64,000 nucleotides of DNA from Candidatus Doudnabacteria bacterium (GTDB lineage Bacteria > Patescibacteriota > Doudnabacteria > UBA920): positions 37,155-101,154 of the forward strand of contig JARLHZ010000010.1 of assembly GCA_031291995.1 (NCBI GenBank), read 5' to 3'. The notes under the pieces are model-generated. The model ran no database searches. It worked only from the letters and a program-made list of their open reading frames with translations, and had not been told where the DNA came from. Both the position numbers and the translations under genes were made by a program. Below, piece after piece: positions 7,072 through 49,139 of this stretch (position 1 is the stretch's first letter; each line of letters begins with the position of its first letter).

Positions 7072-7109
7072 AGCTAGATTGACATCATTTAAAAAATTTA
7101 AAAGACTGA

Positions 7110-7160: not shown

Positions 7161-7168
7161 CAATTTCC

Positions 7169-7465: not shown

Positions 7466-7560
7466 AAAATTGAATTTCTACGAAGTACAAACAAATGTGA
7501 ACTCATGAACAAAGGAGTTTCTCTTCGTAAGTTCGTAAAATTTCGTACTTCGTAAACTGT

Positions 7561-10582: not shown

Positions 10583-10915
10583 TTAGAGTTCCTCAATGTC
10601 CAAATTCTTAAACTGGTTCAGCGTCATTCCCACAACATTCTTGCTTGCTAATAATTTTTTGGAAGTCGGGAAATCTTTTATGTGGTCTTCTCTCAACTTT
10701 ACAAAGACGTTGCCTTCGCTGCCGTCGGATTCACGCTTAAAGTGAAGGATTATTTTTTTGTTATTTAACTGCTTGCCGGTAATTACGCAGTCATCGGCGG
10801 TCAAGGTTTTTATTTTCTTGTCCTTGTCTTCCCACTCCATTATTTCACCAACTTCAAATATGTCTTTTATGGTCATAGATTCTCCACAAATCACTAATTT
10901 CACAAATGAGGACAA
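10583..10915 (-). CDS. Hypothetical small protein (likely start at the internal Met near 10876)
   Basis: ORF only. Confidence 0.3.
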   Translation of the reverse strand: MSSFVKLVICGESMTIKDIFEVGEIMEWEDKDKKIKTLTADDCVITGKQLNNKKIILHFKRESDGSEGNVFVKLREDHIKDFPTSKKLLASKNVVGMTLNQFKNLDIEEL

Positions 10916-11048
10916 ATCTTACGGCAACTTATTTGCAGTATTTGTGAACATTTGTGATTAGTGGATAATTAATTTTTCTTCTTGCTTATTAAGATCCCTC
11001 GACTCGACCTTCGAGTAATATTCTATAAGGTCTCGCTCGGGATGGTTG

Positions 11049-11600
11049 CTATAATTTGCCACCTTCGGCGGCCTTCTTGCTGATAACCACTTGTGACGGA
11101 CGAATAACCTTACCGTTTAGCTCAAACCCGGACTGAAACTCATCTATAACAATTCCATCGTCTTTTTCCGATTCGACTTCCTTTATCGCCTCATGGAAAT
11201 TCGGGTCGAATTTTTTGCCAATGGCCTCAATTTTTTTGACACCTAAATCCGATAATACTTTATCTAACTGGATGACAATTCCGTTCACTCCCGTCTGCCA
11301 GTTTTGGTATTGTTTTTCAAAGTCCGTCTGCAGATTGCTGTCTGCTGATTGCTGATACTGCGGCAAATGCTTCAGCGCCTGCTCCAGCGTATCTATAGTG
11401 GGCAAAAGTTTTACCACCGTTACTTCTTTGGCAAATTCCAGCAGCTCCTTATTCTCGCGTTCCTTCTGTTTTTTAAAATTTTCGAAGTCCGCGGCCGTGC
11501 GCTTCCATCCGGCCATGGCACTTTCAAAATCGGCTTGGAGCTTTTCTAAAGAAACATCACTGGCTTGATTTTGGTCGTCTTGTTGTATATCGTCGCTCAT
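11049..11600 (-). CDS. grpE: Nucleotide exchange factor GrpE
   Basis: AADFENFKKQ ... FDPNFHEA ... GKVIRPSQVV GrpE motifs; lies between hrcA and dnaK. Confidence 0.9.
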   Translation of the reverse strand: MSDDIQQDDQNQASDVSLEKLQADFESAMAGWKRTAADFENFKKQKERENKELLEFAKEVTVVKLLPTIDTLEQALKHLPQYQQSADSNLQTDFEKQYQNWQTGVNGIVIQLDKVLSDLGVKKIEAIGKKFDPNFHEAIKEVESEKDDGIVIDEFQSGFELNGKVIRPSQVVISKKAAEGGKL

Positions 11601-11717
11601 ATGATTAATTCGGATTCATTGATTGAATGCGGATCTACTGATGCCTACCAACACACTTCGATCATCAGCATCCGTAGACATCAGTTGATCCGTGTACCAT
11701 CGGTAGATCCGTATTAA

Positions 11718-12473
11718 TTATTTAATCATGGTCAATAATATGACTGCCGCTCCCCCGCCCAACAGCTTGGCAATATACTCCATAAGGGACAAATTCTTTT
11801 CGTACTTCATGCTCTTGGGGCCGATTAAACCGATTACGCCTTTTTTGCCGCCGGGCAGGCTGAGGCCGCTGACTATCATAGAATAATCGGACTTTTTGCT
11901 GAGTTTTAACTCTTTTCCAATAAACGTTTCGGGTTTTTGCGAACCTGAATAATCCAGCATCATTTTTTCCGCGTACTGGTCGATGTTATCAAAAAACTGA
12001 GCAATCTCTTTGGCATCCTCCGCCGGCAGGGCCGGATTATCGAGAATATTGGACAGGCCCGTAGTGGAAGTTTCTTCGGGAAAAAGCGTGAAAGATGCCT
12101 GTTGGGAATGGTCGGACAGTAATTTCGCGATTTTCCTCCCCATTTCCGCGTGGATAATCTGCATCTTCATCAATTCGCGCCTGAGCAAATCCTGCTCCTT
12201 TAATGTCAGCTGTACGCGGTCCATAAGTTCGTTCACAAAAAACCGGAATCCTTTATCGGTTGGCACGCGACCCGCGGACGTATGAGGCTGGGTAATATAA
12301 CCGGTTTTCTCCAATACCTGCATCTCGTTTCGGATTGTAGCCGGGCTGACATCAAAAGTATATTTACCCGCCAAATCCTGACTGGCTACGGGTTGGCCGT
12401 TGTCGCAGTTCTCCTTAACTATGGCCGCAAGAATTTTGGCTTGCCTTTGAGTGATATCGGAATTTTTGTCCAT
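11718..12473 (-). CDS. hrcA: Heat-inducible transcription repressor HrcA
   Basis: N-terminal winged helix (RQAKILAAIVKENCDNGQPVASQDLAGKY) and HrcA C-terminal domain; CIRCE operator immediately upstream. Confidence 0.85.
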   Translation of the reverse strand: MDKNSDITQRQAKILAAIVKENCDNGQPVASQDLAGKYTFDVSPATIRNEMQVLEKTGYITQPHTSAGRVPTDKGFRFFVNELMDRVQLTLKEQDLLRRELMKMQIIHAEMGRKIAKLLSDHSQQASFTLFPEETSTTGLSNILDNPALPAEDAKEIAQFFDNIDQYAEKMMLDYSGSQKPETFIGKELKLSKKSDYSMIVSGLSLPGGKKGVIGLIGPKSMKYEKNLSLMEYIAKLLGGGAAVILLTMIK

Positions 12474-12499
12474 AATTTTTACCTTGATTAAACTGCTAC

Positions 12500-12535
12500 A
12501 ATGATAATATCATTAGCACTCTACCATGTCAAGTG
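12500..12535 (-). promoter_or_regulatory. Sigma70-type promoter of the hrcA operon (minus-strand TTGACA, 17 nt spacer, TATTAT) overlapping CIRCE
   Basis: Minus strand reads gcacTTGACAtggtagagtgctaatgaTATTATcatt. Confidence 0.75.
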
Positions 12536-12539
12536 CTAA
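12513..12539. promoter_or_regulatory. CIRCE operator (HrcA binding site) TTAGCACTC-N9-AAGTGCTAA
   Basis: ttagcactc taccatgtc aagtgctaa; one mismatch to the consensus TTAGCACTC-N9-GAGTGCTAA. Confidence 0.9.
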
Positions 12540-12608
12540 CTATCTCTGTAAAAATTTTCTTTTTTTGCTATAATTACGGAAAGATAAAATAATTAATAAT
12601 AGAGGTTT

Positions 12609-13883
12609 ATGAAACCCAAACACAAACAATCGACGGCAGGCCTGGCTATATTGGCTTTGTCGTTTTCTTTTTTTGCCGCGCCTCTCAGTAGTTCGGCGCA
12701 AGTGCCAAGCATGCCAATGTTCGCGATGCCGAGTCAACCGCAATTTAATAACTTTTGGAAACCCGACTTCCAAAAACCGTTCTTTCATGCCCGGGTTTGC
12801 GCCCAGGCATTAGCCGGTTTTGGCCTGGCGGGATGCGACGCCCATGTGATAACTGATGCGGGCGGCAAAGCAAAAACTTTTACCGCTCCTTCCGGTTACG
12901 GGCCGGCGCAATTCCAAGCCGCCTACGGCATAACCGCAGCATCCGGCCATCCAATAATCGCCATTGTTGACGCCTACAACGCGCCAAATATAACCTCCGA
13001 CTTAAATACCTACAACAAACAGTTTGGCCTGCCCTCCTTCCCGGCCTGCGCCAAAAATGTTTCCGGTTCCGCCGTGCCGTGCTTCCAAAAAGTCAACCAA
13101 AACGGCGGCTCGTTCCTGCCTCTGTCCAACTCCGGCTGGGCATTGGAAATTTCCCTGGATGTCGAAGTCGCCCACGGTGCCTGCCCACAATGCAGCATTC
13201 TGCTAGTGGAGACAAATTCCAGCAGCTACAACGACCTGCTCACGGGCATTGATCGAGCGGCCATAATGGGAGCCAAGGTTATTTCCGACTCCTGGGGCGG
13301 CGGGGAATTTTCCGGCGAAACTTCCTACGACAGCCATCTCAACAAACCCGGCGTAGCCATAACTTTTAGTTCCGGGGACAGCGGCTACGGGGTGGAGTAT
13401 CCGGCCAGTTCCCGTTATGTGACCGCGGTCGGCGGCACATCGCTTATGATGAACGGACTAGCGTACGCGGGTGAAACCGCCTGGAGCGGCGCCGGTAGCG
13501 GCTGTAGCCAATTTGAGAGCAAACCGGTTTGGCAAACAGATGCCGGATGCGTTAAGCGCACCATCGCCGATGTTTCGGCCGATGCAGACCCAAATACTGG
13601 CGCGGCTGTTTATGACAGCTACCACTTTAGCGGCAGAGCAGGTTGGTTCCAAGTCGGTGGCACTTCGCTGGCTTCGCCACTGGTTGCCGCGGCGTATGCA
13701 ACGGGAACGCCGATTCCTGCCGGCACTGCGCCAAACCAAATGCCCTATATTAACTCGTCGCTGCTGCATGATGTAACTGGCGGGGGCAACGGCACGTGCG
13801 GCGGAGAATATCTTTGCACCGCCATTTCCGGTTACGACGGCCCGACAGGCTTGGGCAGCCCCAATGGCGGCGGAGCGTTCTAA
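12609..13883 (+). CDS. Secreted sedolisin-like (S53 family) serine-carboxyl peptidase, paralog 1
   Basis: Signal peptide; ExxLD (WALEISLDVE), SGDSG and GGTSLASP motifs match the Glu/Asp/Ser triad layout of sedolisin/TPP1-type peptidases; multiple Cys. Confidence 0.65.
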   Translation: MKPKHKQSTAGLAILALSFSFFAAPLSSSAQVPSMPMFAMPSQPQFNNFWKPDFQKPFFHARVCAQALAGFGLAGCDAHVITDAGGKAKTFTAPSGYGPAQFQAAYGITAASGHPIIAIVDAYNAPNITSDLNTYNKQFGLPSFPACAKNVSGSAVPCFQKVNQNGGSFLPLSNSGWALEISLDVEVAHGACPQCSILLVETNSSSYNDLLTGIDRAAIMGAKVISDSWGGGEFSGETSYDSHLNKPGVAITFSSGDSGYGVEYPASSRYVTAVGGTSLMMNGLAYAGETAWSGAGSGCSQFESKPVWQTDAGCVKRTIADVSADADPNTGAAVYDSYHFSGRAGWFQVGGTSLASPLVAAAYATGTPIPAGTAPNQMPYINSSLLHDVTGGGNGTCGGEYLCTAISGYDGPTGLGSPNGGGAF

Positions 13884-13897
13884 GTCAATTAATAATT

Positions 13898-13931
13898 TCC
13901 GCCCTGATTCGGTTCGGGGCGGATTTTTTAT
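13898..13931 (+). terminator. Rho-independent terminator after peptidase paralog 1
   Basis: tccgccc ... ggggcgga hairpin followed by ttttttat. Confidence 0.7.
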
Positions 13932-14076
13932 GGTGGATAACTTTCCCAAAAACTCCTGATTTATTAAAAAATCAGGCTTTTGACATATGGTGAACGCTCG
14001 TTTACTATTTATTCAAGAGTTACCGGATAACCTTATATTGGGTTTCCGGTAATTTTTTATTATTAATCAAATTAAA

Positions 14077-15261
14077 ATGAAAACAATACTTTTTTTGCTG
14101 GCGCTAACAGCGCTTATTATCACACCCGATATTGTCCAAGCTGCCGCCATTCATAATGCCCGCGTTTGCAGTCTGGCTAAAAAACAAGGCCTGGCCAGCT
14201 GTAATGCCCGCGTAATCACCGATGCCAAGGGTAAAATGGTTGTAAATAATTCTCCAATCGGGTTTAGTCCGGCTGATTTGCGGCATGCCTACAATCTTTC
14301 GGGGAAGGCGGATAATCACCCGGTCGTCGCGATTGTGGATGCTTATGACGACCCGACAATCAAAAGCGATCTGGATGTGTACAGCAATCAGTTTGGTTTG
14401 GCGCACTTGCCGAACTGTAAAACCGATGCCGCCAAATCCTTAGTCCCATGTTTTCAAAAAATCAGCCAGCGCGGCACCGCCGCTTTGCCTTCAATAAATA
14501 AAGGCTGGTCAATGGAAATAGCGCTGGATGTGGAAGCGGTTCACGCTATGTGTGAAAACTGTTCAATTTTATTGGTGGAAGCGACTTCTCCCAATATGAC
14601 AAATTTAATGGCGGCCGTTGACGCCGCGGTTAAAGCCGGAGCAGTGGCGGTTTCCAACTCTTACGGCGGCCCGGAATTTGCGGAAGAAAAACAGTTTGAC
14701 AGCCATTTTAATCGTGCCGGAATCGCGTTTACCGTAAGCAGCGGCGACAGCGGCTACGGGGTACAGTACCCGGCCGCTTCTCCTTATGTCACGGCCGTGG
14801 GCGGGACTTCCTTATATTTAGGCTCGGGCGGCAAATATAAAAACGAGGACGCCTGGAGCGGGGCTGGCAGCGGATGCAGCCAATTTGAGGGCAAGCCGGC
14901 CTGGCAAACAGACAATAAATGCCAAAACCGAACCGTGGCGGATGTCTCGGCGGTTGCCGACCCGGACACCGGCTTTGCGGTGTATACCACGACGAGCGTC
15001 AAAGGCCAAAAGGGTTGGTTTACGGCCGGCGGGACATCCTTGTCTTCGCCGCTTATTGCCGCAGTTTATGCTTTGGCCAAAAATATTCCCAGTGGCCAAA
15101 AAGCCAACAGTCTTCCCTATAACCTGGGAACCAAATCCAACCTGCATGACGTGGTCGGCGGAAGCAATGGGGACTGCAACCCCGCCTATTTATGCGCCGG
15201 TAAAACCAAGTACGACGGCCCAACCGGTCTGGGAAGCCCCAACGGTATTGGCGCGTTCTAA
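14077..15261 (+). CDS. Secreted sedolisin-like (S53 family) peptidase, paralog 2
   Basis: Same motif set (SMEIALDVE, SSGDSGYG, GGTSLSSP); aligns along its length with the gene at 12609-13883. Confidence 0.65.
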   Translation: MKTILFLLALTALIITPDIVQAAAIHNARVCSLAKKQGLASCNARVITDAKGKMVVNNSPIGFSPADLRHAYNLSGKADNHPVVAIVDAYDDPTIKSDLDVYSNQFGLAHLPNCKTDAAKSLVPCFQKISQRGTAALPSINKGWSMEIALDVEAVHAMCENCSILLVEATSPNMTNLMAAVDAAVKAGAVAVSNSYGGPEFAEEKQFDSHFNRAGIAFTVSSGDSGYGVQYPAASPYVTAVGGTSLYLGSGGKYKNEDAWSGAGSGCSQFEGKPAWQTDNKCQNRTVADVSAVADPDTGFAVYTTTSVKGQKGWFTAGGTSLSSPLIAAVYALAKNIPSGQKANSLPYNLGTKSNLHDVVGGSNGDCNPAYLCAGKTKYDGPTGLGSPNGIGAF

Positions 15262-15338: not shown

Positions 15339-17084
15339 ATGATCATACAAATACTTTTTGCCGTCCTGGCCGGCATATTAACCATTGCCGCCCCCTGCAT
15401 TTTACCCATGCTCCCGATTTTGCTCGGCGCTTCGGTCGGCCAGCAAAGCAAGCAACGGCCGCTGTTTATTGTGCTAGGATTTATTGTCAGTTTTTCTGCC
15501 GCGGCGCTGGTATTGTCCGCAATCATCAGCCACTTTGGTTTAAGCCCCAACCTGCTTCGCGATATTGCGGTAGTCTGCCTGGCTATTTTTGGACTGCTGA
15601 TGATTTGGCCAAAACCGTTTGAATTGCTGGCTATGAACATGTCCGGCACCATAAACTCCGCCAATAAATTGGGAGGCGGTTCCGGAAATACCGGCGGGCT
15701 GTTGCTCGGCCTGGTCTTGGGCATAGTCTGGACTCCCTGCGCGGGGCCAATTTTGGGATCAATCTTAACCCTGGTGGCAGTTTCCGGCAGTACCTCAAAA
15801 TCGGTGATACTGATGATTGCCTACGCGCTGGGAGCCGGCATCCCCATGCTCATAATCGCCTACGGCAGTCAGTGGATAACAACCAAGGTTAAATGGCTGG
15901 CGCAATATTCGGTGAGACTTCAGCAAATTTTTGGTATATTAATTTTACTATTGGCGGCTGCCATGTATTTCCAATACGACGTTGTAATTGAGGCGGCGCT
16001 GACCCAGGCTTTTCCACAATCCGGTCTGGAAACTCAGTTGGTCCAAAATGGCAACCCTATTTTAAACACCAACCATAATGCACCTATGGAATCTGCCGCC
16101 CTACCATCCCCGCCCGCGACCGGACAAAGCACCACAACGACATCGCAAAATTCCGTTAGACCGGCCACCCCTCTGGATGTTGTCCCTCTGCAAAATTTCG
16201 GCAAAGCCCCCGATTTTACCGGAATAGATCACTGGCTGGATCTTCCAAACAACGCGCAATCGCTGTCGCTGGCCGATTTAAAGGGCAAAGTTGTCCTGGT
16301 GGATTTTTGGACTTTGTCCTGCATAAATTGCATCCGCACCCTGCCATATGTCACAAAATGGTACGATACTTATAAAGGCCGGGGATTGGTTGTAGTCGGA
16401 ATTCACACGCCGGAATTTGATTTTGAAAAGGACACCGGGAACGTCCAAAACGCCATAGAACGTTTTAATATTCATTATCCTGTCGCGCAGGATAATGAAT
16501 ACACGACCTGGAACGCTTATAATAACGAGTATTGGCCGGCCGAATATCTTATTGACCAAAAAGGGAATATTGTCCACGAACATTTTGGCGAAGGTGAATA
16601 TGACGTTATGGAAAATGCCATCCGGGAATTGTTAAATGAAAATACGGCGGTCGGTCCTGAAAATGGCTCGAACTTACAGGGAGTCGGCTCCCCGGAAATG
16701 TATTTTGAAATCTCGCGGCTGAAAAATTTGACACCCGACCAGCAAGCATCGAGCCAGCCGCAAACTTATGCGCTTACTCAAAATTTGGCCCTGAATAATT
16801 TCGCCCTGGAAGGAACATGGCAATTTACCGGCGACCACGCGACTTTGGTAGGCGGACCCGGTAAAATCCGCCTGCATTATCATGCTTCCAATGTCTATAT
16901 GGTGGCCAGCAGCGATAAACCTGTAACCGTGACAGTCTTTGTGGATGGCAAACAGGCCAGCCAGGTGACAATTCAGTCCTCCCGGCTCTACCAGCTCGTT
17001 CAATCCGATTACGCGAACGATTACACCGTGGAAATTGACATCCCACAAGCCGGCCTTAACGCGTTCACGTTTACATTCGGATAA
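15339..17084 (+). CDS. CcdA/DsbD-like transmembrane thiol-disulfide transporter domain fused to a periplasmic thioredoxin-like (TlpA/ResA-type, CxxC) domain
   Basis: Paired Cys in TM helices (AAPCILPML, TPCAGP) typical of CcdA; C-terminal WTLSCINCIRTLP redoxin motif; promoter-like TTGACA-17-TAAAAT and RBS upstream. Confidence 0.7.
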   Translation: MIIQILFAVLAGILTIAAPCILPMLPILLGASVGQQSKQRPLFIVLGFIVSFSAAALVLSAIISHFGLSPNLLRDIAVVCLAIFGLLMIWPKPFELLAMNMSGTINSANKLGGGSGNTGGLLLGLVLGIVWTPCAGPILGSILTLVAVSGSTSKSVILMIAYALGAGIPMLIIAYGSQWITTKVKWLAQYSVRLQQIFGILILLLAAAMYFQYDVVIEAALTQAFPQSGLETQLVQNGNPILNTNHNAPMESAALPSPPATGQSTTTTSQNSVRPATPLDVVPLQNFGKAPDFTGIDHWLDLPNNAQSLSLADLKGKVVLVDFWTLSCINCIRTLPYVTKWYDTYKGRGLVVVGIHTPEFDFEKDTGNVQNAIERFNIHYPVAQDNEYTTWNAYNNEYWPAEYLIDQKGNIVHEHFGEGEYDVMENAIRELLNENTAVGPENGSNLQGVGSPEMYFEISRLKNLTPDQQASSQPQTYALTQNLALNNFALEGTWQFTGDHATLVGGPGKIRLHYHASNVYMVASSDKPVTVTVFVDGKQASQVTIQSSRLYQLVQSDYANDYTVEIDIPQAGLNAFTFTFG

Positions 17085-18321: not shown

Positions 18322-18762
18322 TTAAGTCTTCTGATGCTCGATATTGATATCCCATAAAAACAACAGGACGCTGATCAAGTCGGTGGTTAGACAATATTGG
18401 CAGATTTTTTTTAACACAAAAAACTGGATGCTTAAAAATGCCAATGAAGCCACGGCCCCAATACCCAGCAGCCAAGTCAGCAGCGTTTTCCAGGTGGCGT
18501 AATAATTGGCGAGTAAGGCGCACACCGCCACCGAAAAAAAATAGGCCACTCCCCATACCGATAGCGGCAAACCCAACAGCATGGAGTACTTGCTGTTTAA
18601 CACGGTCTCACAGCCGTGGGTCAAATCACACGGCACCGCAAAGCCCAAGTAGTGGGTAATGGCCAAATACAGGCTGACCCCTAAGCCAAAAATGGCTAAA
18701 ATTACAATGGCATCATGTTTATGTCTGTGCAGCATATAAAATATTTTAGCATAAATCCCCAA
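18322..18762 (-). CDS. Vitamin K epoxide reductase (VKOR) family membrane protein
   Basis: Loop cysteines (VPCDLTHGCETV) plus a CxxC (ICQYCL) at the start of the last TM helix, as in bacterial VKOR/DsbB-like oxidases. Confidence 0.6.
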   Translation of the reverse strand: MGIYAKIFYMLHRHKHDAIVILAIFGLGVSLYLAITHYLGFAVPCDLTHGCETVLNSKYSMLLGLPLSVWGVAYFFSVAVCALLANYYATWKTLLTWLLGIGAVASLAFLSIQFFVLKKICQYCLTTDLISVLLFLWDINIEHQKT

Positions 18763-26945: not shown

Positions 26946-27713
26946 TTAAATTTTATTGCCCGCCGGGGATACTATAAGCGCCGGCAATTCCTGCCTGACG
27001 GTTTCCGGATCTTTTTTTCTATTTATGGTATCTAAAAATAACAATACCACAAAACAATTCAAAATCGCCGAAAGATAAGCAATTAACACTACCACAGCTG
27101 CCAACAATAACCATATTGTAGCAGAATGTCCCGAAACTGAAAACTCCCTGATTAAATAAAGGTCTCCCAATACCCTGTGGACCAAAGCGTAAGATATGCC
27201 GTGCGCTACAATTAAGATGGCGGCCGCGGCTCCCGCAAACGATATTCTTTTATTCCAGGTGTCCATGGCCAGAGACAGGGCCGACGACAAATTTTGATCG
27301 CACAATGCAATATATAACAATGAAAGGCCTGCGGTGGAAGCCGTCACGGCAAAAACCAGCGTATGCAGCGGCCAAAAAGGGAAAATCCAGCGGGCTAAAA
27401 GCACTACAAAGACAGTCATTAAAATCAGGCCTATACCGGAAACGCTTTGGCTTTTAAAATTGTGCCGCGGCTTATCGGGATTGTTAATAAACTTATATGC
27501 CTCTATATCCTGCCACAACCGAATGGTTAATGGAGGCAGTACTGCCATAACCAGAACCAGCCACATTGCAGAAATATGGTTTAACGATTGCGGTCTGACC
27601 AGCTGGCCAACGGCGGAAAAAGCCCCTGCCTGTAAAATCGCCAAAATCCACCAGCGCGGAAACCGGCTGGTGGATAAAATAGACTCGAGTAAAATAGGTT
27701 TCAATTTCGGCAT
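26946..27713 (-). CDS. Hypothetical polytopic membrane protein
   Basis: Six or more TM helices; no motif recognised. Confidence 0.4.
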   Translation of the reverse strand: MPKLKPILLESILSTSRFPRWWILAILQAGAFSAVGQLVRPQSLNHISAMWLVLVMAVLPPLTIRLWQDIEAYKFINNPDKPRHNFKSQSVSGIGLILMTVFVVLLARWIFPFWPLHTLVFAVTASTAGLSLLYIALCDQNLSSALSLAMDTWNKRISFAGAAAAILIVAHGISYALVHRVLGDLYLIREFSVSGHSATIWLLLAAVVVLIAYLSAILNCFVVLLFLDTINRKKDPETVRQELPALIVSPAGNKI

Positions 27714-29968: not shown

Positions 29969-30055
29969 TGGTGGGGACGGTGGGAGTTGAACCCACAAGC
30001 CCTTGCGGGCACAAGGTCCTAAGCCTTGCGCGTATGCCAATTCCGCCACGTCCCC
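29969..30055 (-). tRNA. tRNA-Leu (anticodon TAG), type II with a long variable arm
   Basis: Manual fold: acceptor ggggacg/cgtcccc, anticodon stem caagg/ccttg with loop ctTAGga, variable-arm hairpin gccc-gcaa-gggc, T-arm gtggg-ttcaact-cccac, CCA encoded. Confidence 0.8.
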
Positions 30056-30164
30056 AATGAACGATAATAACTCATTAAATCGCTTTAATTGGCAAATCTA
30101 TTTTAGCAGTTTAAGGCTTATGTTGGCAAAACAAAATGCCTCCACCCTAATTGGACAACGGCAA

Positions 30165-30365
30165 AATAAAGGTTCCCCGCCGCAAGCAGCGGGGTATTAC
30201 TGCAAGGAACAGCTGCATCTTCGCGGCAAGCCGCGAGGTATTGAACCTTTCTTTCCGCCAAAGGCGGATCCGCCTCCGGCGGAAGCTCCCTGCCTGGCGG
30301 CAGGCAGGCCTCGGCTCGCTTGTCCTTTGAAAGACAAAGGACAGACTCGCCTACGTCGCGAATAA
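30165..30365. repeat. Structured repeat element L between the pilin-like array and tRNA-Leu (second copy 59608-59760)
   Basis: Shared blocks aataaaggttccccgccgcaagc..ggggtattactgcaa and cctcggctcgct ... ctacgtcgc(g/t)aataaaa; internal hairpins differ (gtcctttgaaagacaaaggac vs cggccataaatggccg); minus-strand end forms a terminator-like GC hairpin plus U-run; carries an extra 28-bp GGATCC palindrome absent from the other copy. Confidence 0.65.
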
Positions 30366-30374
30366 AAACTACAA

Positions 30375-31268
30375 TTATTGCCCTTTGGTAATAACGCTGC
30401 TGATTACGGTAATTATAGCGTACGATAATAGCACGACAATGACGCCGATAATGGAATTAACAATGGCTTTTTTGCCTTTTTCCGACTGCTCCTCGTTGCC
30501 CGCGGAAGTAATATACCAAAAGCCGCCGACAATAAGCATTAGCACGGCAATAACTCCGGCCAGCGCCAACAGCAAAGTAATTATCTTAGTCAATAAATCT
30601 GTCAGGCTATTGCTGGCGCAAATTCCCCCGTTGCAAGCCGAACTGTTCGGCGGCAGGCATAAACCGTTAACCGAAACTAAACCAGCCGCGCAGTTACCTT
30701 GTGTCTGGCCAGTTCCGTTAGTACTTGCGCCGGTAAGCGAGATGCCCATTGCCGTTGCCGTATCAGAGCCGACGATTCCGTCATTGGTCAGGTTGTGTGA
30801 TTGCTGCCAAAGCTGAATTCCCTTGATTGTTTCTGAGTCGCAAGTTCCGCTGTAAGTGACATTGCTGTCAACACCCTGCACGATTCCCTGAATTTGCTTA
30901 ATAATATTTGGGTCGGTAGTGCCGCAAGACCCGCCGCCCTTCGGCGACCCAATAGCGTATTGAGAAGAATTGTTGTTAGCCGGCAATCCACATTTACCGC
31001 TGTTACATACCAGTCCGCTTTTGGAAGTACCGCAATCCGCGCTGGTGGAACAAGGCGTAGTATTCGTTACCGTCTCACAGGTGTTGCCGTTTGTTTTATC
31101 ACAAAATAAGCCGGTAGCGCAATCGGTATTAAAAGTGCATCCGTCCCCCAGCTGCGCGTCGGCAAAAACAAAAAAAGGGTAAGCTAAAAATACGCCAACA
31201 ATTAAGACGACTAATGCCGAAATATTTAAATACCTCAATGAAAACCCTTTTGCATGCGTCCCGTTCAT
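30375..31268 (-). CDS. T4SS-pilin-like (TrbC/VirB2-like) secreted protein with a Cys-rich N-terminal domain, member 1 of a five-gene array
   Basis: Signal peptide; C-terminal conserved block IVGGFWYITSAGNEEQSEKGKKAIVNSIIGVIVVLLSYAIITVI (two TM helices flanking an SAGNEE..EKGK loop) shared by all five paralogs; 12 Cys in the N-terminal domain. Confidence 0.6.
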   Translation of the reverse strand: MNGTHAKGFSLRYLNISALVVLIVGVFLAYPFFVFADAQLGDGCTFNTDCATGLFCDKTNGNTCETVTNTTPCSTSADCGTSKSGLVCNSGKCGLPANNNSSQYAIGSPKGGGSCGTTDPNIIKQIQGIVQGVDSNVTYSGTCDSETIKGIQLWQQSHNLTNDGIVGSDTATAMGISLTGASTNGTGQTQGNCAAGLVSVNGLCLPPNSSACNGGICASNSLTDLLTKIITLLLALAGVIAVLMLIVGGFWYITSAGNEEQSEKGKKAIVNSIIGVIVVLLSYAIITVISSVITKGQ

Positions 31269-31311
31269 TTTGTGTCTATTTTAATTTTCCGGATTCGAAC
31301 AGAAGGAAAAA

Positions 31312-31731
31312 TTAATAACCCGAAGCCACGTAATTGGAAATTACGTTGATAATTACGAATGATAAAACAATTATGACTATGCCAATAATGGCGTTAACCA
31401 CGTTTTGTTTGCCCTTTTCCGCGGCTTCTTCGTTGCCGGCGGAAGTAATATATTGGTAACCGCCGACAATGACAAACACAATGGCGATAGCCCCGGCAAT
31501 ATACAGCAGCATGGTTATTACCAAATAAATTAAACCGTTCTGGCCGGTCAGATGCGTCGCGCCGCCAATACCCATACCTCCCGTGCCAGGAAATAAACCA
31601 CCAACGCCGTTCAGGCCGCTTCCAAACGCGTCACCGCCCGTGCTTTGGGCCGATACTAATCGCGGCATCGCCAAAATGCTTCCAAAAACAACCGCCGCCT
31701 GCCAATATTTGAGTTGTAAATATTTTTTCAT
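31312..31731 (-). CDS. T4SS-pilin-like small secreted protein, member 2
   Basis: Signal peptide plus C-terminal IVGGYQYITSAGNEEAAEKGKQNVVNAIIGIVIIVLSFVIINV block. Confidence 0.6.
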   Translation of the reverse strand: MKKYLQLKYWQAAVVFGSILAMPRLVSAQSTGGDAFGSGLNGVGGLFPGTGGMGIGGATHLTGQNGLIYLVITMLLYIAGAIAIVFVIVGGYQYITSAGNEEAAEKGKQNVVNAIIGIVIIVLSFVIINVISNYVASGY

Positions 31732-31822
31732 TGTATTTTAAATTTTTTATCAAATCCGAAAACAAAAACAATTTGTTCTCGGATTTGATCCCAAACAATA
31801 CGCTTGGGACCAAAATTTCAAA

Positions 31823-32230
31823 TTACGGCGCGCTAGTCGAATTCGGACTGGCCACCAGGCTGGAAATAACGTTTATAATCACGTAGGACAAGATTATAAT
31901 CACGATACCGATAATTGCGTTAATGGCCGTACCTTTGCCTTTTTCCGCGGTTTCTTCGTTACCGGCTGAGGTAATGTACCAGAAGCCGCCAATAATCAGG
32001 AACAACACGGCAATACCGAAGGCAATGCCCAAGAGCCAGTCAATTACCGTGCGAATAAAACCGTTAATGCTGGTAGATTGACAGTTTAAACCCGTTGACG
32101 GGTCGCACTGAAAATTGGCATTTAACTGAGCGCTTGCCAACACCGGAGCGGAAATTAACATAACGGACAACATAACTTCCGCAATTTTAATCAGTTTTTC
32201 TTTTTTTATTATTTGTTTCAAGCTGTTCAC
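31823..32230 (-). CDS. T4SS-pilin-like small secreted protein, member 3
   Basis: C-terminal IIGGFWYITSAGNEETAEKGKGTAINAIIGIVIIILSYVIINV block. Confidence 0.6.
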   Translation of the reverse strand: MNSLKQIIKKEKLIKIAEVMLSVMLISAPVLASAQLNANFQCDPSTGLNCQSTSINGFIRTVIDWLLGIAFGIAVLFLIIGGFWYITSAGNEETAEKGKGTAINAIIGIVIIILSYVIINVISSLVASPNSTSAP

Positions 32231-32244
32231 CCCCTCTCTGTACC

Positions 32245-32300
32245 TTTCCCTCTCCCTCCTTGCCCGCCGAAGCCTTTTGGCAAAGGCGGGTGGGAGAGGA
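32245..32300. repeat. GC-rich nested-hairpin element (cctctccctcc ... gcccgccgaagccttttggcaaaggcgggtgggagagg) between pilin-like genes 3 and 4
   Basis: Read directly; an extended -10 (tgGTATAAT) lies just upstream on the minus strand at about 32330-32345. Confidence 0.55.
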
Positions 32301-32370
32301 CAAAGGTGAGGGATTAGGATTAATTTTTAATTTGACTTTATTATACCACAATAGTTACCTTGTTTCCATG

Positions 32371-32814
32371 CTAACTCCCATGCAACAGTAAATTTGAAAT
32401 AATTCTGACGATAACGGTGGCTAAAATTACCACCACCAAACCGATAACTGAGTTAATGATTATTTTTTTACCTTTTTCCGACTGCTCCTCGTTGCCGGCC
32501 GAAGTCACATAAAAGAATCCGCCAATTATTAAAAAGACCGCCGTGACCACGCCAACCAGGCCCATTGCCCAATAAAATACCGCCAAAACCAGGCCGCTAG
32601 CCGAGCAAAAATAAGGCAGGCTGCTGCTGGCTACCACATTGGCGCCGGAACTCAATCCGAATTGGCTCATAAAATTGGCACATCGCTGGTCAGAAGAAAT
32701 TACCGGCGCCTGATTTTGCGCCCCGGCCACAGCCGGCACCAACGCCAAAAATGACAAGTTGAATAGAACCAGCAGTGAGGCGATTTTCGCGAACTTGATA
32801 AATTTAATTCCCAT
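32371..32814 (-). CDS. T4SS-pilin-like small secreted protein, member 4
   Basis: C-terminal IIGGFFYVTSAGNEEQSEKGKKIIINSVIGLVVVILATVIVRI block. Confidence 0.6.
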   Translation of the reverse strand: MGIKFIKFAKIASLLVLFNLSFLALVPAVAGAQNQAPVISSDQRCANFMSQFGLSSGANVVASSSLPYFCSASGLVLAVFYWAMGLVGVVTAVFLIIGGFFYVTSAGNEEQSEKGKKIIINSVIGLVVVILATVIVRIISNLLLHGS

Positions 32815-32831
32815 ATTTTTGTTGTTAGATT

Positions 32832-33326
32832 TTATTGATGCAGTAACTGCTCGGGCAAATTGCTACAGGGATTTTGGTCAATGATCAGGTAATTCATGGG
32901 GTTAGTGAGATCAAGCCTGCAATTGGCGTTGTTCTTTAATGAAATATCGCGGGTCAGCAGGACATTAACCACCGTATTAATAAGCATAAAGGCGATTAGC
33001 ACCAAAATAAACCCGACGACCGCTTCCGAGATTCCGCTTTTATGTTTGGTAATCGCTTCTTCATTACCCATGGAAATGACCAGCCAAAATCCGTGGTCAA
33101 CAATTTTGTATGCCGCGTAAACTCCGGCCATGGCAATCAACCAGTTGGTGACCTTGGCAATGAGAGTAAATATATCTATAACCGTACACGGTTTTTCGGC
33201 CGCGCCACCGCACGGTACCAGCCCGGCCGCGTGCGTAACGTGCGGCATACTGACGGCAAATAAACTAACAGCCGATAAAGCCAGGATTCCAAGGAAAATT
33301 TTTTGTTTCTGTGCGGACATTTTCAA
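32832..33326 (-). CDS. T4SS-pilin-like small secreted protein, member 5 (most divergent)
   Basis: C-terminal FWLVISMGNEEAITKHKSGISEAVVGFILVLIAFMLINTVVNV block. Confidence 0.5.
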   Translation of the reverse strand: MKMSAQKQKIFLGILALSAVSLFAVSMPHVTHAAGLVPCGGAAEKPCTVIDIFTLIAKVTNWLIAMAGVYAAYKIVDHGFWLVISMGNEEAITKHKSGISEAVVGFILVLIAFMLINTVVNVLLTRDISLKNNANCRLDLTNPMNYLIIDQNPCSNLPEQLLHQ

Positions 33327-33641
33327 TACTAATCAATTACCCCGCAGCAGAGCTGCGAGGTATGAACTGCAGGTTGCAAAGGAGTTGCTATAACCCCGGA
33401 GCAGAGCTCCGAGGAAATCTTATTCATTATACCATAAGCTGACCGGAACCGCCAAACCATTACTGGTAACAGCTCTCAATCTTGAGTAGGACAAACCCGG
33501 AGGCCGGAAATACTGGCGATTTTATGCAGCGAGAATTGGGATGCGTTGTGATATCAGGCGCAGACTGATGAACGAGAAGCCCCCCAGGCCGCGGAAAATC
33601 GGAAGGATTTTCGGCCTCACTCAGGCTTGTGAATTTTGATC
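33327..33641 (-). promoter_or_regulatory. 315-bp ORF-free leader upstream of the pilin-like array with two tandem covarying hairpins
   Basis: ccccgcagcagagctgcgagg and ccccggagcagagctccgagg have an identical architecture with compensatory stem changes. Confidence 0.45.
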
Positions 33642-41732: not shown

Positions 41733-43584
41733 TTAAAGATAGCCATTCCTGCTTTTCTCTTCCAAGGCATTTGCTAAAGGAGAATCTAGATTAAGAACCA
41801 CCCATCTTTTTTGTCCACCATGATACAATGTGTTCCATTTCATTGCCATAGGAATTCTTTTAGCGGCTATTGCTTCCTCAGGAGTTTGCCAGTGAGCGTC
41901 GTTTGTTTGAATGGCTTGCTCTAAAATTTGGTCTTCTGCTCGATTTAATCTTTCAACTTGCACCGAATACAATTCTCTGTTTGGACCTTTGGGATTTATT
42001 CGTTGGTCAGATATTCTTAGAACCTCCATTGCAAAATGTATGTCAGCCAAGTCTAAACTGCTTGCATCTGACTTTTTTATCATCTGGACAATCCGCATGG
42101 CATCTTGTTCGGTTGGCTCTTTAAAATCATCAACGAAATGCCCCTTAGAGTCACGCCCTAAAAGAGTCCCGTTATATTCATCTTCAAGTGCTTTTATAGT
42201 AACAGCATTGTCTTTGGGTTCAGCCATTTCTGTTTTGGCGGCAGAAAGCTTCCCTGTTAAGAAGGCATTGTAATCTGATTCTATCTGTTTAACTGTCCCT
42301 CGAGCTTTTTCCGCCAACTCATAAAATTTAGCCTTCAGGTTAATTTCATCGCCAGATTCTGAAAGCTGTTTTATTTCTTGCACGGCCTGAGCCATATCTG
42401 GCCCAGTTTCAGGTAGTCCAATCCTACAAACCTCACTGCTAATAAATTTAAGCTCGTCTGGGATAGTTGAAACTCTTTTAGGCATGGACATGCTCCTTGG
42501 CGGCGGTTTCATTGGGTCAAATGACCCTTCCGGCATTGGAGGACAATCTTGCAATTCCACTTTGTCAGGATATAATTTAATCAACGTTTTAAAAAGTTCT
42601 GCGTAATTTGGACTGTAAACTTCGCTAATCATCAATTCTAGTTTTTCGTCCCTGTTCTGTCTATACCAATCCAGAAATGATGCCATTAGGTGGTATTTTG
42701 TAATCGTCGAGGCATATGGATCGGTACTGCCCGCTTCCATAGTTTGAGCATCAGCCGTAAACAGTTGTTCGAATTTCACCTGGAAAATTTTACCGTCATG
42801 GGAAACCGCATTAGCCAAGGGATGGTCTGAGTGTTCGCCTTTGAGCCAATACTTAAAAGATTCTATAAACCTATCACTTGGATCAACCCCGGCAACCCTT
42901 CTTTCTACCATAGTTGTTAAACCCTCATTATAAAGAATACTGTAAAAATAACTCTCTGGCTCTAGCGTATGGGTGTACTCGTGGACAAATGTATCTTCTG
43001 GAGCTGCGTTGGCACCAGAAATAATATTTATGTTTTTTTTTGACTGCTTTTTTGTCAGTAAAGCCGGCCGTGGTCTCCGTGGCAATATCTTTAGAGGTAG
43101 TTGCTCCGTGAATCAGTATCGGCGGGACTTCCGCCTGGGTTGCTCTTTTATATTTATCTGGCAAAAATTTATCCGCCAGTTCAAAATCTTTTTTATATTC
43201 GCCCTTTTTTAAATAATTCAAAAACCTATCTACGAGTTGTTGGTCGCTTGGCGCAATATCGGGGTCAACATAAACTGTTAAGCCAGTCTCTAATACTTCT
43301 TTTCTGAATTTCCTTTTTATAACCTCGGCGACTTCGGGCTGGGTGCTAAATACTTCGCTTATAACGTTACTACGTTCTAAAATAGAAAGTTCCGCTAATT
43401 CACTTTTTGTTTTTTCGTCATTTTCTAGTAACTCTTTTCTTTTATCCACCTCGTCATTGATAGTAAGGGCTTCTTCATGGTATTCATCCATCTTCGCCCG
43501 TTTTTCAGCATCAGAAAATTGACCAAATTTTTCTTGGTCAACAATTTTGCTAAAGTCGAATTGTTCGTTAGATCCTCTCGGCAT
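41733..43584 (-). pseudogene. HExxH-motif protein gene split by a frameshift at a T9-10 homopolymer (track ORFs 41733-43085 and 42928-43584)
   Basis: Two overlapping same-strand ORFs; homopolymer tttttttttt at about 43033-43044; VHEYTH motif in the downstream part; AT-rich region. Confidence 0.45.
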
Positions 43585-44004: not shown

Positions 44005-44119
44005 TGACAAAAAAAATTGAACTGCTATAATTTAATTACTTTTGGGATATACCCACCGATCCGGAGTTTAGGCTCCGGTGATTATTTGGAAACTCGAGCA
44101 ATGTCTCGAGTTTTTGTTT
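44005..44119 (+). ncRNA. Candidate small RNA: consensus sigma70 promoter (TTGACA-16-TATAAT) followed by two hairpins and a terminator, antisense to the 3' end of the mazF-like gene
   Basis: ttgaca 44005-44010, tataat 44027-44032; hairpins ccggagtttaggctccgg and ctcgagcaatgtctcgag followed by tttttgttt. Confidence 0.45.
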
Positions 44120-44476
44120 AATTTCAATAAGATCCTTATTTTCCAACGTCGCAAGCCTCCTCTGAAACCTGTTTACATGAAACATTCTAATCTGATACAA
44201 AAGCACAAATTGAGTAACGCCATTAACAAGAACACTTGAAAACCAAGAACCGATTTTTGGTTGAGTAGATAGCGGTATGCCAATAAAACTGACTGACGAC
44301 AACTTCCTAACAACCAAGACAGGCCTTCTAAAAGTAACCCCTTTACCACATGATTCACTGCCGATATTTATTCCAACGGAACACCACCAAATATCCCCAG
44401 ATTTGAAAAGAAATTTTTCAGACCTCCTTTCTAAAGCTTTTTTCTTTTCATTCCAATTATCAAAATCCTTTTGCAT
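44036..44476 (-). CDS. PemK/MazF-like endoribonuclease-fold protein (orphan; no adjacent antitoxin ORF)
   Basis: SGDIWWCSVGINIGSESCGKGVTFRRPVLVVRK ... FIGIPLSTQPK resembles the MazF/PemK core. Confidence 0.5.
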   Translation of the reverse strand: MQKDFDNWNEKKKALERRSEKFLFKSGDIWWCSVGINIGSESCGKGVTFRRPVLVVRKLSSVSFIGIPLSTQPKIGSWFSSVLVNGVTQFVLLYQIRMFHVNRFQRRLATLENKDLIEIKQKLETLLEFPNNHRSLNSGSVGISQK

Positions 44477-46862: not shown

Positions 46863-49139
46863 TTATTGTTGTTCCTCTTCAATTCCATACTCCGCTTTTT
46901 CATCGGGCGGAATTACACCATAAACTTCGCGCGGTTTGGCGCCCTCGCCGGGGCCGATAATCCCCTGCCCTTCCAAAATATCCAGCAATCTGGCGGCCCG
47001 CGCGTAACCGACCCGCAAGCGGCGCTGGAGTAATGAAGCCGACGCCTTTCCCGCTCGCTTAACTTCTTCTATTGCTTCGGACAATAACGGATCGTCATCG
47101 TCTCCCCCGCCCTCGCCTTCTCCACCCCCAATACCCAATGCCCGTTTGGGTTTTTCCACCACATCGTCGTTATAAATAACCGCGCCAACCTGCGCTTTAA
47201 AGAAGTCCACGACTTGTTTAACTTCCTTTTCGCCAATATAAGCTCCCTGGATGCGTTTGGGTTTGTTGTATTCGGCGGATGTGTAAAGCATATCGCCGTT
47301 GCCCAAAAGTTTTTCCGCCCCCGAACTGTCTAATATCGTCCGGCTATCGATTTGTGAAGCGACCGCAAAAGCAATGCGGCTGGTAATGTTGGCTTTTATC
47401 AGGCCCGTAATAATATCCACGCTGGGGCGCTGGGTGGCCAGAACCAAATGGATGCCGACGGCGCGCGCCATTTGCGCCAATCTGACAATGGCCGATTCCA
47501 CGTCGGCCTGGGCTACAGCCATCAGATCAGCCAATTCGTCCACCAAAATCACTATATAAGGCAAAGCCAGACCTGCGGCTTCGTTGTATTCCAAAATATT
47601 CCGCTTGCCGGCTTCGGACAAAAGTTTGTAACGGCGATCCATTTCCGCCACCGCCCACTTTAAGGCGTTAACGGCTTTTTCGTTTTCGGTAATTACCGGC
47701 GTCAGCAAATGAGGGATGCCGTTATACAAATTCAGTTCCACCCTTTTCGGGTCCACAACAATAAATTTTACGTCCTGCGGCGTATTGCGGTAAAGCAAAC
47801 CAATAAACAAACTGTTAATGGCCACGCTCTTGCCCGTACCCGTGGCGCCGGCTATCAGCAAGTGCGGCATTTTGGCCAAATCCACCACCATGGGATGGCC
47901 GGCCACGTCGCGGCCCAAAGCCAGGCCGAGTTTGCTCTTGTGGTTTACAAAGTCTGTGGTCTGCATAACTTCGCGCAGGCGCACAATTGCCGTGGATTTG
48001 TTTGGGACTTCAATGCCGACCAAGGCCTTGCCCGGAATGGGTAATTCCATGCGGATGGAATGGGCGGCCAAAGACAGCGCCAAATCGTTCTGCAGCGCGG
48101 CGATTTGCGAAAGTTTTACTCCCACCGCCGGCCTTAAAGTATATTGCGTAACCGTCGGCCCCACGTTGACCTCGCCCATTTCCACGTCTATGCCAAAATC
48201 CGCCAACGTCTTTTTTATGATGGCCACGTTTACTTCGATGTTGCCGCTGTCCACTTCCGCGTGATTGTCGTCAAGTAAATCAAAACCCGGCAGTTTCCAA
48301 TCCTTGCGGTCTTCCAGGGTGATGGCTTCTATTTTTAACCCGTCAACCTTGCCCGCGTTAATTACCTTGGTAATCGGGGTAATGGGCGATTTGGTTTTAA
48401 TATTGGTGTTATTGTTATCGTGATCGTTATCATTTATCCTAGGATTTTTATCCAAAACCCTTTCTTCCACAAATCCTTCTTTGCCCATGGCGTTGATTTT
48501 CAAGACGGCGGGAGCTGCCTTGTCCGCCGCAGCCTTGGCGGCGGCGGATATTTCTTCCTTAGCGTTATCTTCCGACTCGGGTTTTTTGGCAAAAAATTGG
48601 CGCAGGGAAAAATCAAATATTATTAACAGCGAAATAATCGCCAAGGCCGTAAGAATCAAACTCCCCGCCCAAAAACCCAAAAAATTAAACAGGGGCTGGG
48701 AAAAAATCGCGCCCAAATACCCGCCGCCGCGGCCTTCCATGGCCAAATCAAAAGCGCTTAAATCGCTGCTCAAATAAAAAATGTGAACTAATCCGGCAAT
48801 GCTGCCCGCCAGGAGGACGGCGCCAAAATAGACCCGCCAGTAAAATCCGCCGCCGCGGCCGTCTTTTTCCAAATCTTCTTTATAGAGGGAAATGGCAACA
48901 CTTAATAAAATCAGCGGCACGGCATATGCCATTAAGCCGAAGCCCAGCGACAGGGAGCGGAACAAATTGACGCCCAGACTTCCTGCCACGCCGGCAATGC
49001 TTAAGACCACTATTAAAGCCAAAACTATAAAGATTACCACCGCTATCCCGCGCTTGGTTTCACCTGAAAGATTTAACGATGGAGTCGGTATTTTTCTGTC
49101 TTCTTTATCTCTGTCTTTGCCTTTTTTTCTTTTAGCCAT
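46863..49139 (-). CDS. ftsK: DNA translocase FtsK/SpoIIIE
   Basis: N-terminal TM domain, low-complexity linker, motor domain with Walker A GATGTGKS, C-terminal winged-helix gamma domain. Confidence 0.95.
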   Translation of the reverse strand: MAKRKKGKDRDKEDRKIPTPSLNLSGETKRGIAVVIFIVLALIVVLSIAGVAGSLGVNLFRSLSLGFGLMAYAVPLILLSVAISLYKEDLEKDGRGGGFYWRVYFGAVLLAGSIAGLVHIFYLSSDLSAFDLAMEGRGGGYLGAIFSQPLFNFLGFWAGSLILTALAIISLLIIFDFSLRQFFAKKPESEDNAKEEISAAAKAAADKAAPAVLKINAMGKEGFVEERVLDKNPRINDNDHDNNNTNIKTKSPITPITKVINAGKVDGLKIEAITLEDRKDWKLPGFDLLDDNHAEVDSGNIEVNVAIIKKTLADFGIDVEMGEVNVGPTVTQYTLRPAVGVKLSQIAALQNDLALSLAAHSIRMELPIPGKALVGIEVPNKSTAIVRLREVMQTTDFVNHKSKLGLALGRDVAGHPMVVDLAKMPHLLIAGATGTGKSVAINSLFIGLLYRNTPQDVKFIVVDPKRVELNLYNGIPHLLTPVITENEKAVNALKWAVAEMDRRYKLLSEAGKRNILEYNEAAGLALPYIVILVDELADLMAVAQADVESAIVRLAQMARAVGIHLVLATQRPSVDIITGLIKANITSRIAFAVASQIDSRTILDSSGAEKLLGNGDMLYTSAEYNKPKRIQGAYIGEKEVKQVVDFFKAQVGAVIYNDDVVEKPKRALGIGGGEGEGGGDDDDPLLSEAIEEVKRAGKASASLLQRRLRVGYARAARLLDILEGQGIIGPGEGAKPREVYGVIPPDEKAEYGIEEEQQ

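Follow-up and report, generated by a model that had tools for sequence, protein, structure and literature searches.

Tandem arrays of VirB2-like pilin genes raise the question of whether their members are interchangeable variants of a single pilin or the distinct parts of one structure. The locus analyzed here poses this question for Candidatus Doudnabacteria (assembly GCA_031291995.1, contig JARLHZ010000010.1). It lies in a stretch of 64,000 nucleotides, hereafter the window, whose minus strand carries, between 30375 and 33320, five consecutive open reading frames (ORFs) that form a tandem array, g5-g4-g3-g2-g1. A first-pass annotation of this DNA had read the five genes as type IV secretion system (T4SS) pilin-like (TrbC/VirB2-like) genes sharing a block of two transmembrane (TM) helices joined by a loop, and had proposed that they serve antigenic or functional diversification of a surface filament. 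The ORFs, their alignment and profile searches bear out the first of these proposals: judged by sequence, the array is a set of tandem VirB2/TrbC-like "T4SS pilin" genes of the candidate phyla radiation (CPR) type. Comparison of the locus across the class Doudnabacteria speaks against antigenic diversification. It suggests paralogs that are ancient, specialized and fixed in order, and argues for one heteromeric structure, with a major and several minor subunits, over antigenic variation.

Composition and family membership of the array

The five genes of the array are the following.

32832..33320, minus strand: g5, 162 aa from ATG; first, divergent member
32371..32814, minus strand: g4, 147 aa; Cys pair in the ectodomain; PF18895 score of 52.5 bits
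31823..32221, minus strand: g3, 132 aa from a conserved TTG; candidate major subunit
31312..31731, minus strand: g2, 139 aa; Gly-rich ectodomain without Cys; PF18895 score of 40.9 bits
30375..31268, minus strand: g1, 297 aa, the long member; predicted signal peptide, Cys-rich beta-hairpin module, PG_binding_1 three-helix bundle, membrane-proximal 4-Cys module and pilin hairpin

The start of g3 was corrected from GTG at 32230 to the conserved TTG at 32221, and that of g5 is probably the ATG at 33320, which is favored over the alternative TTG at 33326 and agrees with the 162-aa gene calls of NCBI and Logan. The g1 and g5 proteins have NCBI gene entries (P4L74_01740 and P4L74_01760, respectively) on a 105-kb contig of a Ca. 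Doudnabacteria metagenome-assembled genome.

Alignment of the five proteins revealed a common C-terminal block, consisting of a TM helix, a (S/A)(A/M)GNEE-xx-(E/T)K(G/H)K loop and a second TM helix. Family membership was assessed with profile hidden Markov models (HMMs). Using the Pfam T4SS_pilin family (PF18895, gathering cutoff of 26.6 bits), g1 (47.6 bits) and g3 (51.6 bits), together with g2 and g4 at the scores given above, lie above the cutoff, and g5 lies below it (22.4 bits). The profile of g5 orthologues aligns to that of g2-g4 orthologues with an hhalign probability of 98.6% (E 9e-16), and g5 was hence regarded as a divergent member of the array; precomputed annotation assigns PF18895 to about half of the 35 database homologues of g5. 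The Pfam TrbC/VirB2 family (PF04956, gathering cutoff of 27.9 bits) is more restrictive: g3 alone passes it (30.3 bits), with g1 (23.4 bits) and g2 (22.4 bits) below the cutoff and no match for g4 or g5. Among NCBIfam models, the best match of g1-g4 over the two-TM block is NF045849 (Mbov_0395 family), with scores of 31-37.5 bits that all fall below its 40-bit cutoff.

Each protein opens with a basic and hydrophobic, signal-like segment, closed by an A-Q that hardly varies among g1-g4 and their orthologues, and the hydropathy profiles place two hydrophobic 19-mers on either side of the charged loop (in g4, the hydrophobic segments span residues 11-29, 79-97 and 118-136). These features agree with the secreted two-TM proteins proposed in the first-pass annotation and with the architecture of a VirB2-type pilin, that is, a signal peptide followed by two hydrophobic helices and a short charged loop, signal cleavage itself being a prediction. 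The other members are 31-45% identical to g1. With five consecutive members of low mutual identity, the locus constitutes a patescibacterial VirB2 array as defined by Quinonero-Coronel et al. (2025), namely at least two PF18895/PF04956 genes in tandem or one non-pilin gene apart and with low identity among members.

Conservation of the locus and orthology of its five positions

The array was compared with its relatives through context look-ups of three loci (L003, L005 and L007) and a scan for g3 in species-representative genomes, which provided 38 more loci. The gene order ComM-GalU-SBP-[g5-(extra)-g4-g3-g2-g1]-tRNA-Leu-FtsH-unk-tRNA-Val-RNase III, where unk is an unknown gene, is preserved in about 35 of 38 Doudnabacteria species, with tRNA-Leu(TAG), at 29969-30055 of the window, directly downstream of the array. 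At all five positions, scores between orthologues exceed those between paralogues; for g3, orthologues score 505-533 and paralogues 131-238. Each position is therefore its own orthologous group, which implies that the duplications predate the radiation of these species and that the order has been fixed since.

Mean identity to the protein encoded in the window is highest for g3 (64%), followed by g2 (52%), g1 (48%), g5 (46%) and g4 (44%); the neighboring SBP and GalU, used for comparison, average 65% and 66%. Within orthologous groups, identity over the TM-loop-TM block reaches 80% for g3, compared with 52-63% for the other members, and drift between species is confined to the exposed N-terminal segments, which in g1-g4 retain only 25-37% identity. 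The ectodomain motif of g5, at 61%, shows the highest ectodomain conservation in the array. The orthology of the positions and their conserved order disfavor antigenic variation and point to fixed functional specialization.

Copy number among relatives is five or six, the extra gene being a large, variable member between g5 and g4 that is absent from the lineage of the window, where these two genes are 17 nt apart. In L007 this sixth pilin-fusion member (6883-8220) encodes 445 aa with repeated "ACSPG..SDLSDVPN.AC.GK" motifs, and it is found in about 20 other loci. Mobile insertions in or beside the array were also observed: a DUF559 endonuclease-like ORF between g4 and g3 in L005 (8521-8856), a faint LAGLIDADG-like ORF after g1 in L007 (10905-11543) and, in L003, a serine recombinase with an island of unannotated genes (10915-12573) past tRNA-Leu, in place of FtsH. 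The site past tRNA-Leu appears to be an integration hotspot.

Expression signals around g3

The gene for the candidate major subunit is accompanied by the following elements, where z refers to folding stability.

32340..32368, minus strand: dedicated g3 promoter with extended -10, TGGAAA-17-TGgTATAAT
32231..32313, minus strand: long GC-rich hairpin in the 5' untranslated region (UTR) of g3, z = -3.6; its outer helix, CCCTC/GAGGG, pairs part of the Shine-Dalgarno (SD) sequence
32219..32238, minus strand: invariant long SD and TTG start, GAGAGGGGGTGAACAGC-TTG, nearly identical in about 33 of 38 species
31749..31811, minus strand: tandem hairpins right after the g3 stop (HP1 31787-31811; HP2 about 31749-31789), z of -6.7 for the folding window

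The first two elements are the GC-rich hairpin and extended -10 that had been noted between members 3 and 4, and both were found there. Most of the 38 species have TGnTATAAT or TATAAT ahead of their g3 orthologue. The element GAGAGGGGGTGAACAGCTTG is invariant among the g3 expression signals, and GGGGGTGA occurs just once in the window. The SD block could presumably pair with the anti-SD at the 3' end of 16S rRNA over about 11 nt. The 5' UTRs of g3 fold better than shuffled sequences (mean z of -2.0, n = 36 species), with hairpins that vary in sequence and length; in 29 of the 36 minimum-free-energy folds, at least three of the five G residues of the SD are paired by the outer helix, formed by CCCTC/GAGGG or, in short UTRs, by CCC-GNRA-GGG.

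On the other side of the gene, the 80 nt following the g3 stop were scored in 36 species and fold, in almost every one, into one or two strong hairpins (mean z of -4.87, with 86% below -2), compared with mean z values of -1.05 and -0.57 for coding controls. The stem sequences are unrelated between species and their position is the same, and this maintenance of hairpins at the site despite unrelated sequences suggests selection for structure. The tandem hairpins are thus candidates for an attenuator or a 3' stabilizer. Conserved RNA features flank g3 on both sides, unlike the hairpins of the g5 leader described below. The g5-g4 and g2-g1 spacers, at 17 nt and 43 nt, are too short to hold elements of the g3 type.

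Ectodomains of g1 and g5

The distal member of the array had been described as carrying a 12-Cys N-terminal domain. Its Cys-rich character stands, and the count does not: g1 has 14 cysteines, all within the ectodomain, which also matches PG_binding_1 (PF01471) at residues 139-174 with 24.2 bits against a cutoff of 23. The AlphaFold2 (AF2) model of g1 comprises a signal helix, small disulfide-rich beta-hairpins, a three-helix PG_binding_1 bundle (helices 120-130, 145-157 and 168-174, with predicted local distance difference test [pLDDT] values of 83-93) and a hairpin of helices 222-255 and 259-295. The homologues of g1 share this architecture and have precomputed PF01471 matches, and Foldseek searches with the g1 model retrieved the peptidoglycan-binding pieces of EpsAB, SltB3 and CtpB, only at E values of 1.5-3.4. 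The ectodomain of g1 is predicted to combine a Cys-rich module with peptidoglycan binding. The g5 protein consists of a signal peptide, a conserved GLVPCGG..PC motif, a TM helix, a SMGNEEAITKHK loop, a second TM helix and a C-terminal tail with two Cys.

The window additionally encodes a DsbD-TM/thioredoxin fusion (15339-17084, plus strand), a VKOR homologue (18322-18762, minus strand) and two tandem S8 subtilases (12609-15261, plus strand). The DsbD-like protein and VKOR fit a need to oxidize Cys-rich ectodomains, and such a toolkit would suit Cys-rich secreted proteins.

Hairpins in the g5 leader and downstream of g1

Two long spacers flank the array and hold the following elements.

33426..33455, minus strand: promoter-like site upstream of g5 with extended -10, TTGGCG-18-TGgTATAAT
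33394-33414 and 33340-33360, minus strand: two 21-nt hairpin copies in the g5 5' UTR, one compensatory pair apart
30056..30374, minus strand: hairpin-rich GC spacer between g1 and tRNA-Leu, 319 nt with about six GC-rich hairpins, z = -5.1
30289-30308, minus strand: GC-rich palindrome CCTGCCTGCC-N4-GGCAGG(CAGG), downstream of g1
30175-30194, minus strand: terminator-like hairpin within the g1-tRNA-Leu spacer

The region upstream of g5 (33327-33641) had been described as an ORF-free leader of 315 bp with two covarying hairpins. The gene strand indeed lacks any ORF of at least 60 aa, one mechanical ORF of 43 aa being listed. The hairpins are present and differ by a compensatory pair, CCTCGgAGC-TCT-GCTcCGGGG at 33394-33414 and CCTCGcAGC-TCT-GCTgCGGGG at 33340-33360; the pattern matches twice against 0.02 expected, with a fold z of -4.0. 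They are specific to this genome, being absent from the orthologous leaders of L003, L005 and L007, which do not align with that of the window, and their reading as a conserved element was hence rejected. In L003 (about 7790-7815) and L007 (about 6440-6461), an extended -10 (TGnTATAAT) sits about 13 nt from the g5 ATG, which suggests a near-leaderless g5 mRNA in these relatives; in L005 only a 62-nt spacer precedes g5. The approximately 100 nt that carry the two hairpins in the window look like a lineage-specific insertion.

The g1-tRNA-Leu spacer of relatives measures only about 110-240 nt, so that the 319 nt of the window appear to be a lineage-specific expansion as well. The palindrome CCTGCCTGCC-N4-GGCAGG within it also occurs at unrelated intergenic sites in four other genomes (L003 7533-7552, L012 2543-2566, L029 11242-11261 and L034 2328-2347) and looks like a dispersed repetitive extragenic palindromic (REP)-like element; because of this recurrence, some of the hairpins at the locus are best regarded as dispersed elements. 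Rfam scans, both gathering and permissive, matched none of the intergenic regions of the locus to a known RNA family, and a window-wide scan for perfect GC-rich hairpins gave no striking intergenic enrichment (5 of 17 intergenic, versus about 21% non-coding).

Genomic context

The window is housekeeping chromosome, encoding DnaK, DnaJ, GrpE, HrcA, SMC, RNase III, FtsH, RecA, FtsK, Mur and Ddl enzymes and tRNAs; the FtsK (46863-49139) is a genuine one, with alpha, gamma and 4TM domains. Pfam gives no match for three ORFs (450 aa at 41733-43085, 218 aa at 42928-43584 and 255 aa at 26946-27713, all on the minus strand), the 255-aa ORF being conserved beside FtsH in relatives. In the precomputed annotation of an identical Logan contig, the ORF at 62608-63258 (plus strand) has a weak Pfam match to N_methyl (type IV pilin-like prepilin); it adjoins a Wzy_C/O-antigen ligase-like gene (60677-62026). 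Type II toxin-antitoxin genes are scattered over the window, with a PemK/MazF-like toxin at 44036-44476 (minus strand) and HicA/HicB and MazE-like genes at about 4800-5800, the latter identified through a matching Logan contig (L049).

A model for the array and its alternatives

Taken together, these observations make it probable that the chromosomal, operon-like array of five PF18895 paralogs encodes ancient, specialized subunits of one T4SS-assembled pilus-like or conduit structure. Each precursor would carry a Sec-type signal peptide, cut between the final A and the Q of the conserved A-x-A-Q site, and the mature protein would reside in the membrane as a two-helix hairpin, with the short charged SAGNEE..EKGK loop facing the cytoplasm and the variable N-terminal segment exposed. 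The essential pilin series of the Saccharibacteria T4SS suggests, by analogy, that the five proteins are subunits of the same pilus-like or conduit structure, extracted and assembled by a VirB4-type machine encoded elsewhere in the genome and used at host contact. In this scheme g3 would be the abundant major subunit, its own strong promoter, 5' UTR stem-loop, 11-nt SD and tandem 3' hairpins yielding more, and longer-lived, mRNA than its neighbors have. The g1 protein could act through peptidoglycan either as an anchor at the base, in the cell's own wall, or as an adhesin at the tip, on the wall of the host; it would be low-copy, since an ectodomain of 190 residues would not pack into a tight helical filament if all subunits carried it. 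The g5, g4 and g2 proteins would be minor or adaptor subunits.

Several observations weigh against this model. All sizeable ORFs of the 64-kb window were examined, and none resembles VirB4, VirB6, VirB3, TrsD or VirD4, in agreement with the pilin-only array of the first-pass annotation, nor was T4SS machinery found within 6 kb on either side of the array in the 38 related loci. In the sense of lying within about 20 coding sequences of virB4 and other T4SS genes, the array is not a T4SS cluster component, and its functional tie to a T4SS therefore comes from homology and from other lineages. In the AF2 model of g3, a signal helix is followed by a helical hairpin (50-84 and 89-124) that turns at SAGN; confidence in the AF2 models is moderate (pLDDT about 70). 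A profile search of Protein Data Bank (PDB) sequences with the g2-g4 orthologue alignment identified no solved pilin, returning only a chance match to a quinol oxidase (E 3.5), and Foldseek comparison of the g3 and g1 models with the PDB gave nothing at E <= 0.001, the best pilin being the Aeropyrum pernix conjugation pilin 8dfu (E = 5.2, TMt 0.63), with ATP synthase subunit c and other hairpins reaching scores as high as those of pilins. Fold searches tell bare helical hairpins apart poorly, and a lack of structure matches is thus expected; since neither sequence nor fold searches give anything significant, the fold evidence supports "helical hairpin" only, and the link to VirB2 comes from the HMMs. 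To our knowledge, a pilus of the PF18895 family has never yet been seen. With regard to g3, its likely role as the major subunit is deduced only from its conservation and expression signals, and these signals have exceptions: the 5' UTR is unstructured, with the hairpin missing, in four species, and a simple test recovered a canonical hairpin with a U-tract after g3 at no more than 9 of 40 loci, for which reason the post-g3 hairpins were not called terminators.

The alternatives differ in how much of this evidence they can accommodate. If the array were a cassette for antigenic or host-range variation, its members would be interchangeable alternative major pilins subject to rapid duplication, loss and recombination. 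The low identity among paralogs (31-45%), the divergence between species of the N-terminal segments of g1-g4 (25-37%, against 52-80% for the membrane block) and a copy number that shifts between five and six in many relatives through the large extra member between g5 and g4 are all in its favor, but a separate orthologous group at each position, in an order kept in about 35 of 38 species, is not what such a cassette predicts. No sign of recent duplication or homogenization among the paralogs was found, the members differ qualitatively in ectodomains and expression signals, and the g5 ectodomain motif is 61% conserved, making a variation cassette quite unlikely. Also unlikely is that the proteins share only ancestry with VirB2 and act, independently of any T4SS and never as a pilus, as two-helix envelope proteins forming a wall-tethered scaffold or an oligomeric pore. 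The array is unlinked from T4SS genes and sits among housekeeping genes across the whole class; solitary g3-like copies elsewhere (L043 and L046) likewise have no T4SS neighbors, lying instead near Nramp, MgtE, sigma factor, HlyD/ABC and decarboxylase genes; the peptidoglycan-binding domain of g1 would suit a static anchor; and the generic fold, matched equally by ATP synthase subunit c, is compatible with such proteins. Nevertheless, g3 passes the TrbC/VirB2 HMM, the homologous series of Saccharibacteria is contained in a T4SS cluster and shares its essentiality (PMC10633639), pilin genes lie near virB4 in 1135 of 1948 assemblies (PMC12102498), and one Doudnabacteria assembly is reported as VirB4-positive (PMC12102498, Table S1). 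A bolder version, which we regard as improbable, has the array independent of a T4SS in Doudnabacteria and forming a class-wide, heteromeric, wall-anchored envelope filament, with a g3 polymer, a g1 peptidoglycan anchor and g5, g4 and g2 adaptors, its stoichiometry set by the RNA architecture of g3 through a 5' helix that sequesters the SD and serves as a translational switch, and through 3' tandem hairpins that serve as an attenuator. If true, monoderms would have in this filament a surface appendage of a new type, with its origin in VirB2.

The alternative named in the first-pass annotation, that the proteins are holin-like or come from phage as lysis proteins or toxins, would fit their small size, two TM helices and charged loop. 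The PF18895 matches, the chromosomal position conserved across the class, the lack of phage context, the predicted cleavable signal peptides and long ectodomains, and a PHROGs search that gave no match at E <= 0.01 for any of the five proteins effectively refute this identity, leaving it a negligible probability. A further alternative concerns the RNA elements and not the proteins: the intergenic hairpins could be non-regulatory, a mixture of common terminators and of palindromes, selfish or REP-like, that are dispersed through the genome and gather in any long spacer. We hold this possibility to be less likely than not. In its favor, the g5-leader hairpins are missing from orthologous leaders, the CCTGCCTGCC palindrome recurs at unrelated sites and the inner hairpin of the g3 5' UTR is very variable in length, with nested insertions in L007. 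It does not readily explain hairpins at the same position after g3 in nearly all 36 species with unrelated sequences, or the recurrence of the outer CCCTC/GAGGG or CCC-GNRA-GGG pairing beside an invariant SD.

Comparison with known systems

Arrays of this class are already on record in the Patescibacteria, where 441 VirB2 arrays of 2-11 genes (PF04956/PF18895) have been reported from 383 assemblies, with an average identity of 25% and a maximum of 54%; pilin genes lie away from virB4 in 813 of 1948 assemblies, and the authors suggest that array variation serves host adaptation (PMC12102498). The pilin series of Southlakia epibionticum lies in its T4SS cluster and is essential (PMC10633639), and a 2025 review speculates on a conduit for uptake from the host (PMC12857230). 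The array described here belongs to the same Pfam family as those of S. epibionticum ML1 (T4SS cluster SEML1_0006-0019) and of Nanosynbacter lyticus TM7x (the "Sec-secreted array"), and shares with such patescibacterial arrays the tandem arrangement of 2-11 divergent, structurally similar proteins with a signal peptide and two helices in a monoderm CPR host. It differs from them in having no T4SS cluster nearby and in keeping, throughout the class Doudnabacteria, to one housekeeping locus (SBP ... tRNA-Leu-FtsH), in one member with a predicted Cys-rich and peptidoglycan-binding ectodomain, and in the distinctive, conserved expression architecture of g3.

The VirB2/TrbC/TraA conjugative pilins of Gram-negative bacteria likewise combine a long signal peptide, two hydrophobic helices and a short charged loop, and g3 resembles them in passing PF04956 and in its modeled helical hairpin, whereas the other four proteins score below PF04956, similarity to solved pilins is seen in neither sequence nor Foldseek searches, the host is monoderm and no VirB machinery is adjacent. 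The Mbov_0395 pilin-like conjugal transfer proteins of mycoplasma integrative and conjugative elements (ICEs; NF045849) have the same two-TM block and also occur in wall-less or monoderm bacteria, but the proteins described here score below the family cutoff and have no ICE context. In Bartonella and Anaplasma, arrays of VirB2 paralogs have been proposed to serve antigenic variation. Those arrays, too, comprise several tandem paralogs with divergent exposed parts; the Doudnabacteria paralogs, in contrast, appear ancient, orthologous by position and architecturally distinct, with no evidence of switching in the loci compared. In fimbrial operons such as pap, the major subunit is favored in expression, an intercistronic stem-loop after papA leading to an excess of major pilin mRNA. 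The layout of g3 is reminiscent of this arrangement: the gene follows a promoter and 5' stem-loop of its own, and stable hairpins directly after its stop codon separate it from the genes for downstream subunits; the protein family and assembly machinery are unrelated, and the effect on mRNA would be the same only by analogy.

Few gene sets have been shown to be indispensable to a cultivated Patescibacterium in its epibiotic life, and VirB2-like arrays are among them. The locus does not define a system of a new kind; comparison across the class favors a heteromeric machine, in which major and minor subunits combine, over antigenic variation, and singles out g3 as the first protein to look for in structural and cryo-electron tomography studies. 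To the published class of arrays, the present analysis adds the class-wide fixed position and orthology of five paralogs, a probable major subunit, g3, with a conserved RNA architecture, and a member predicted to bind peptidoglycan.

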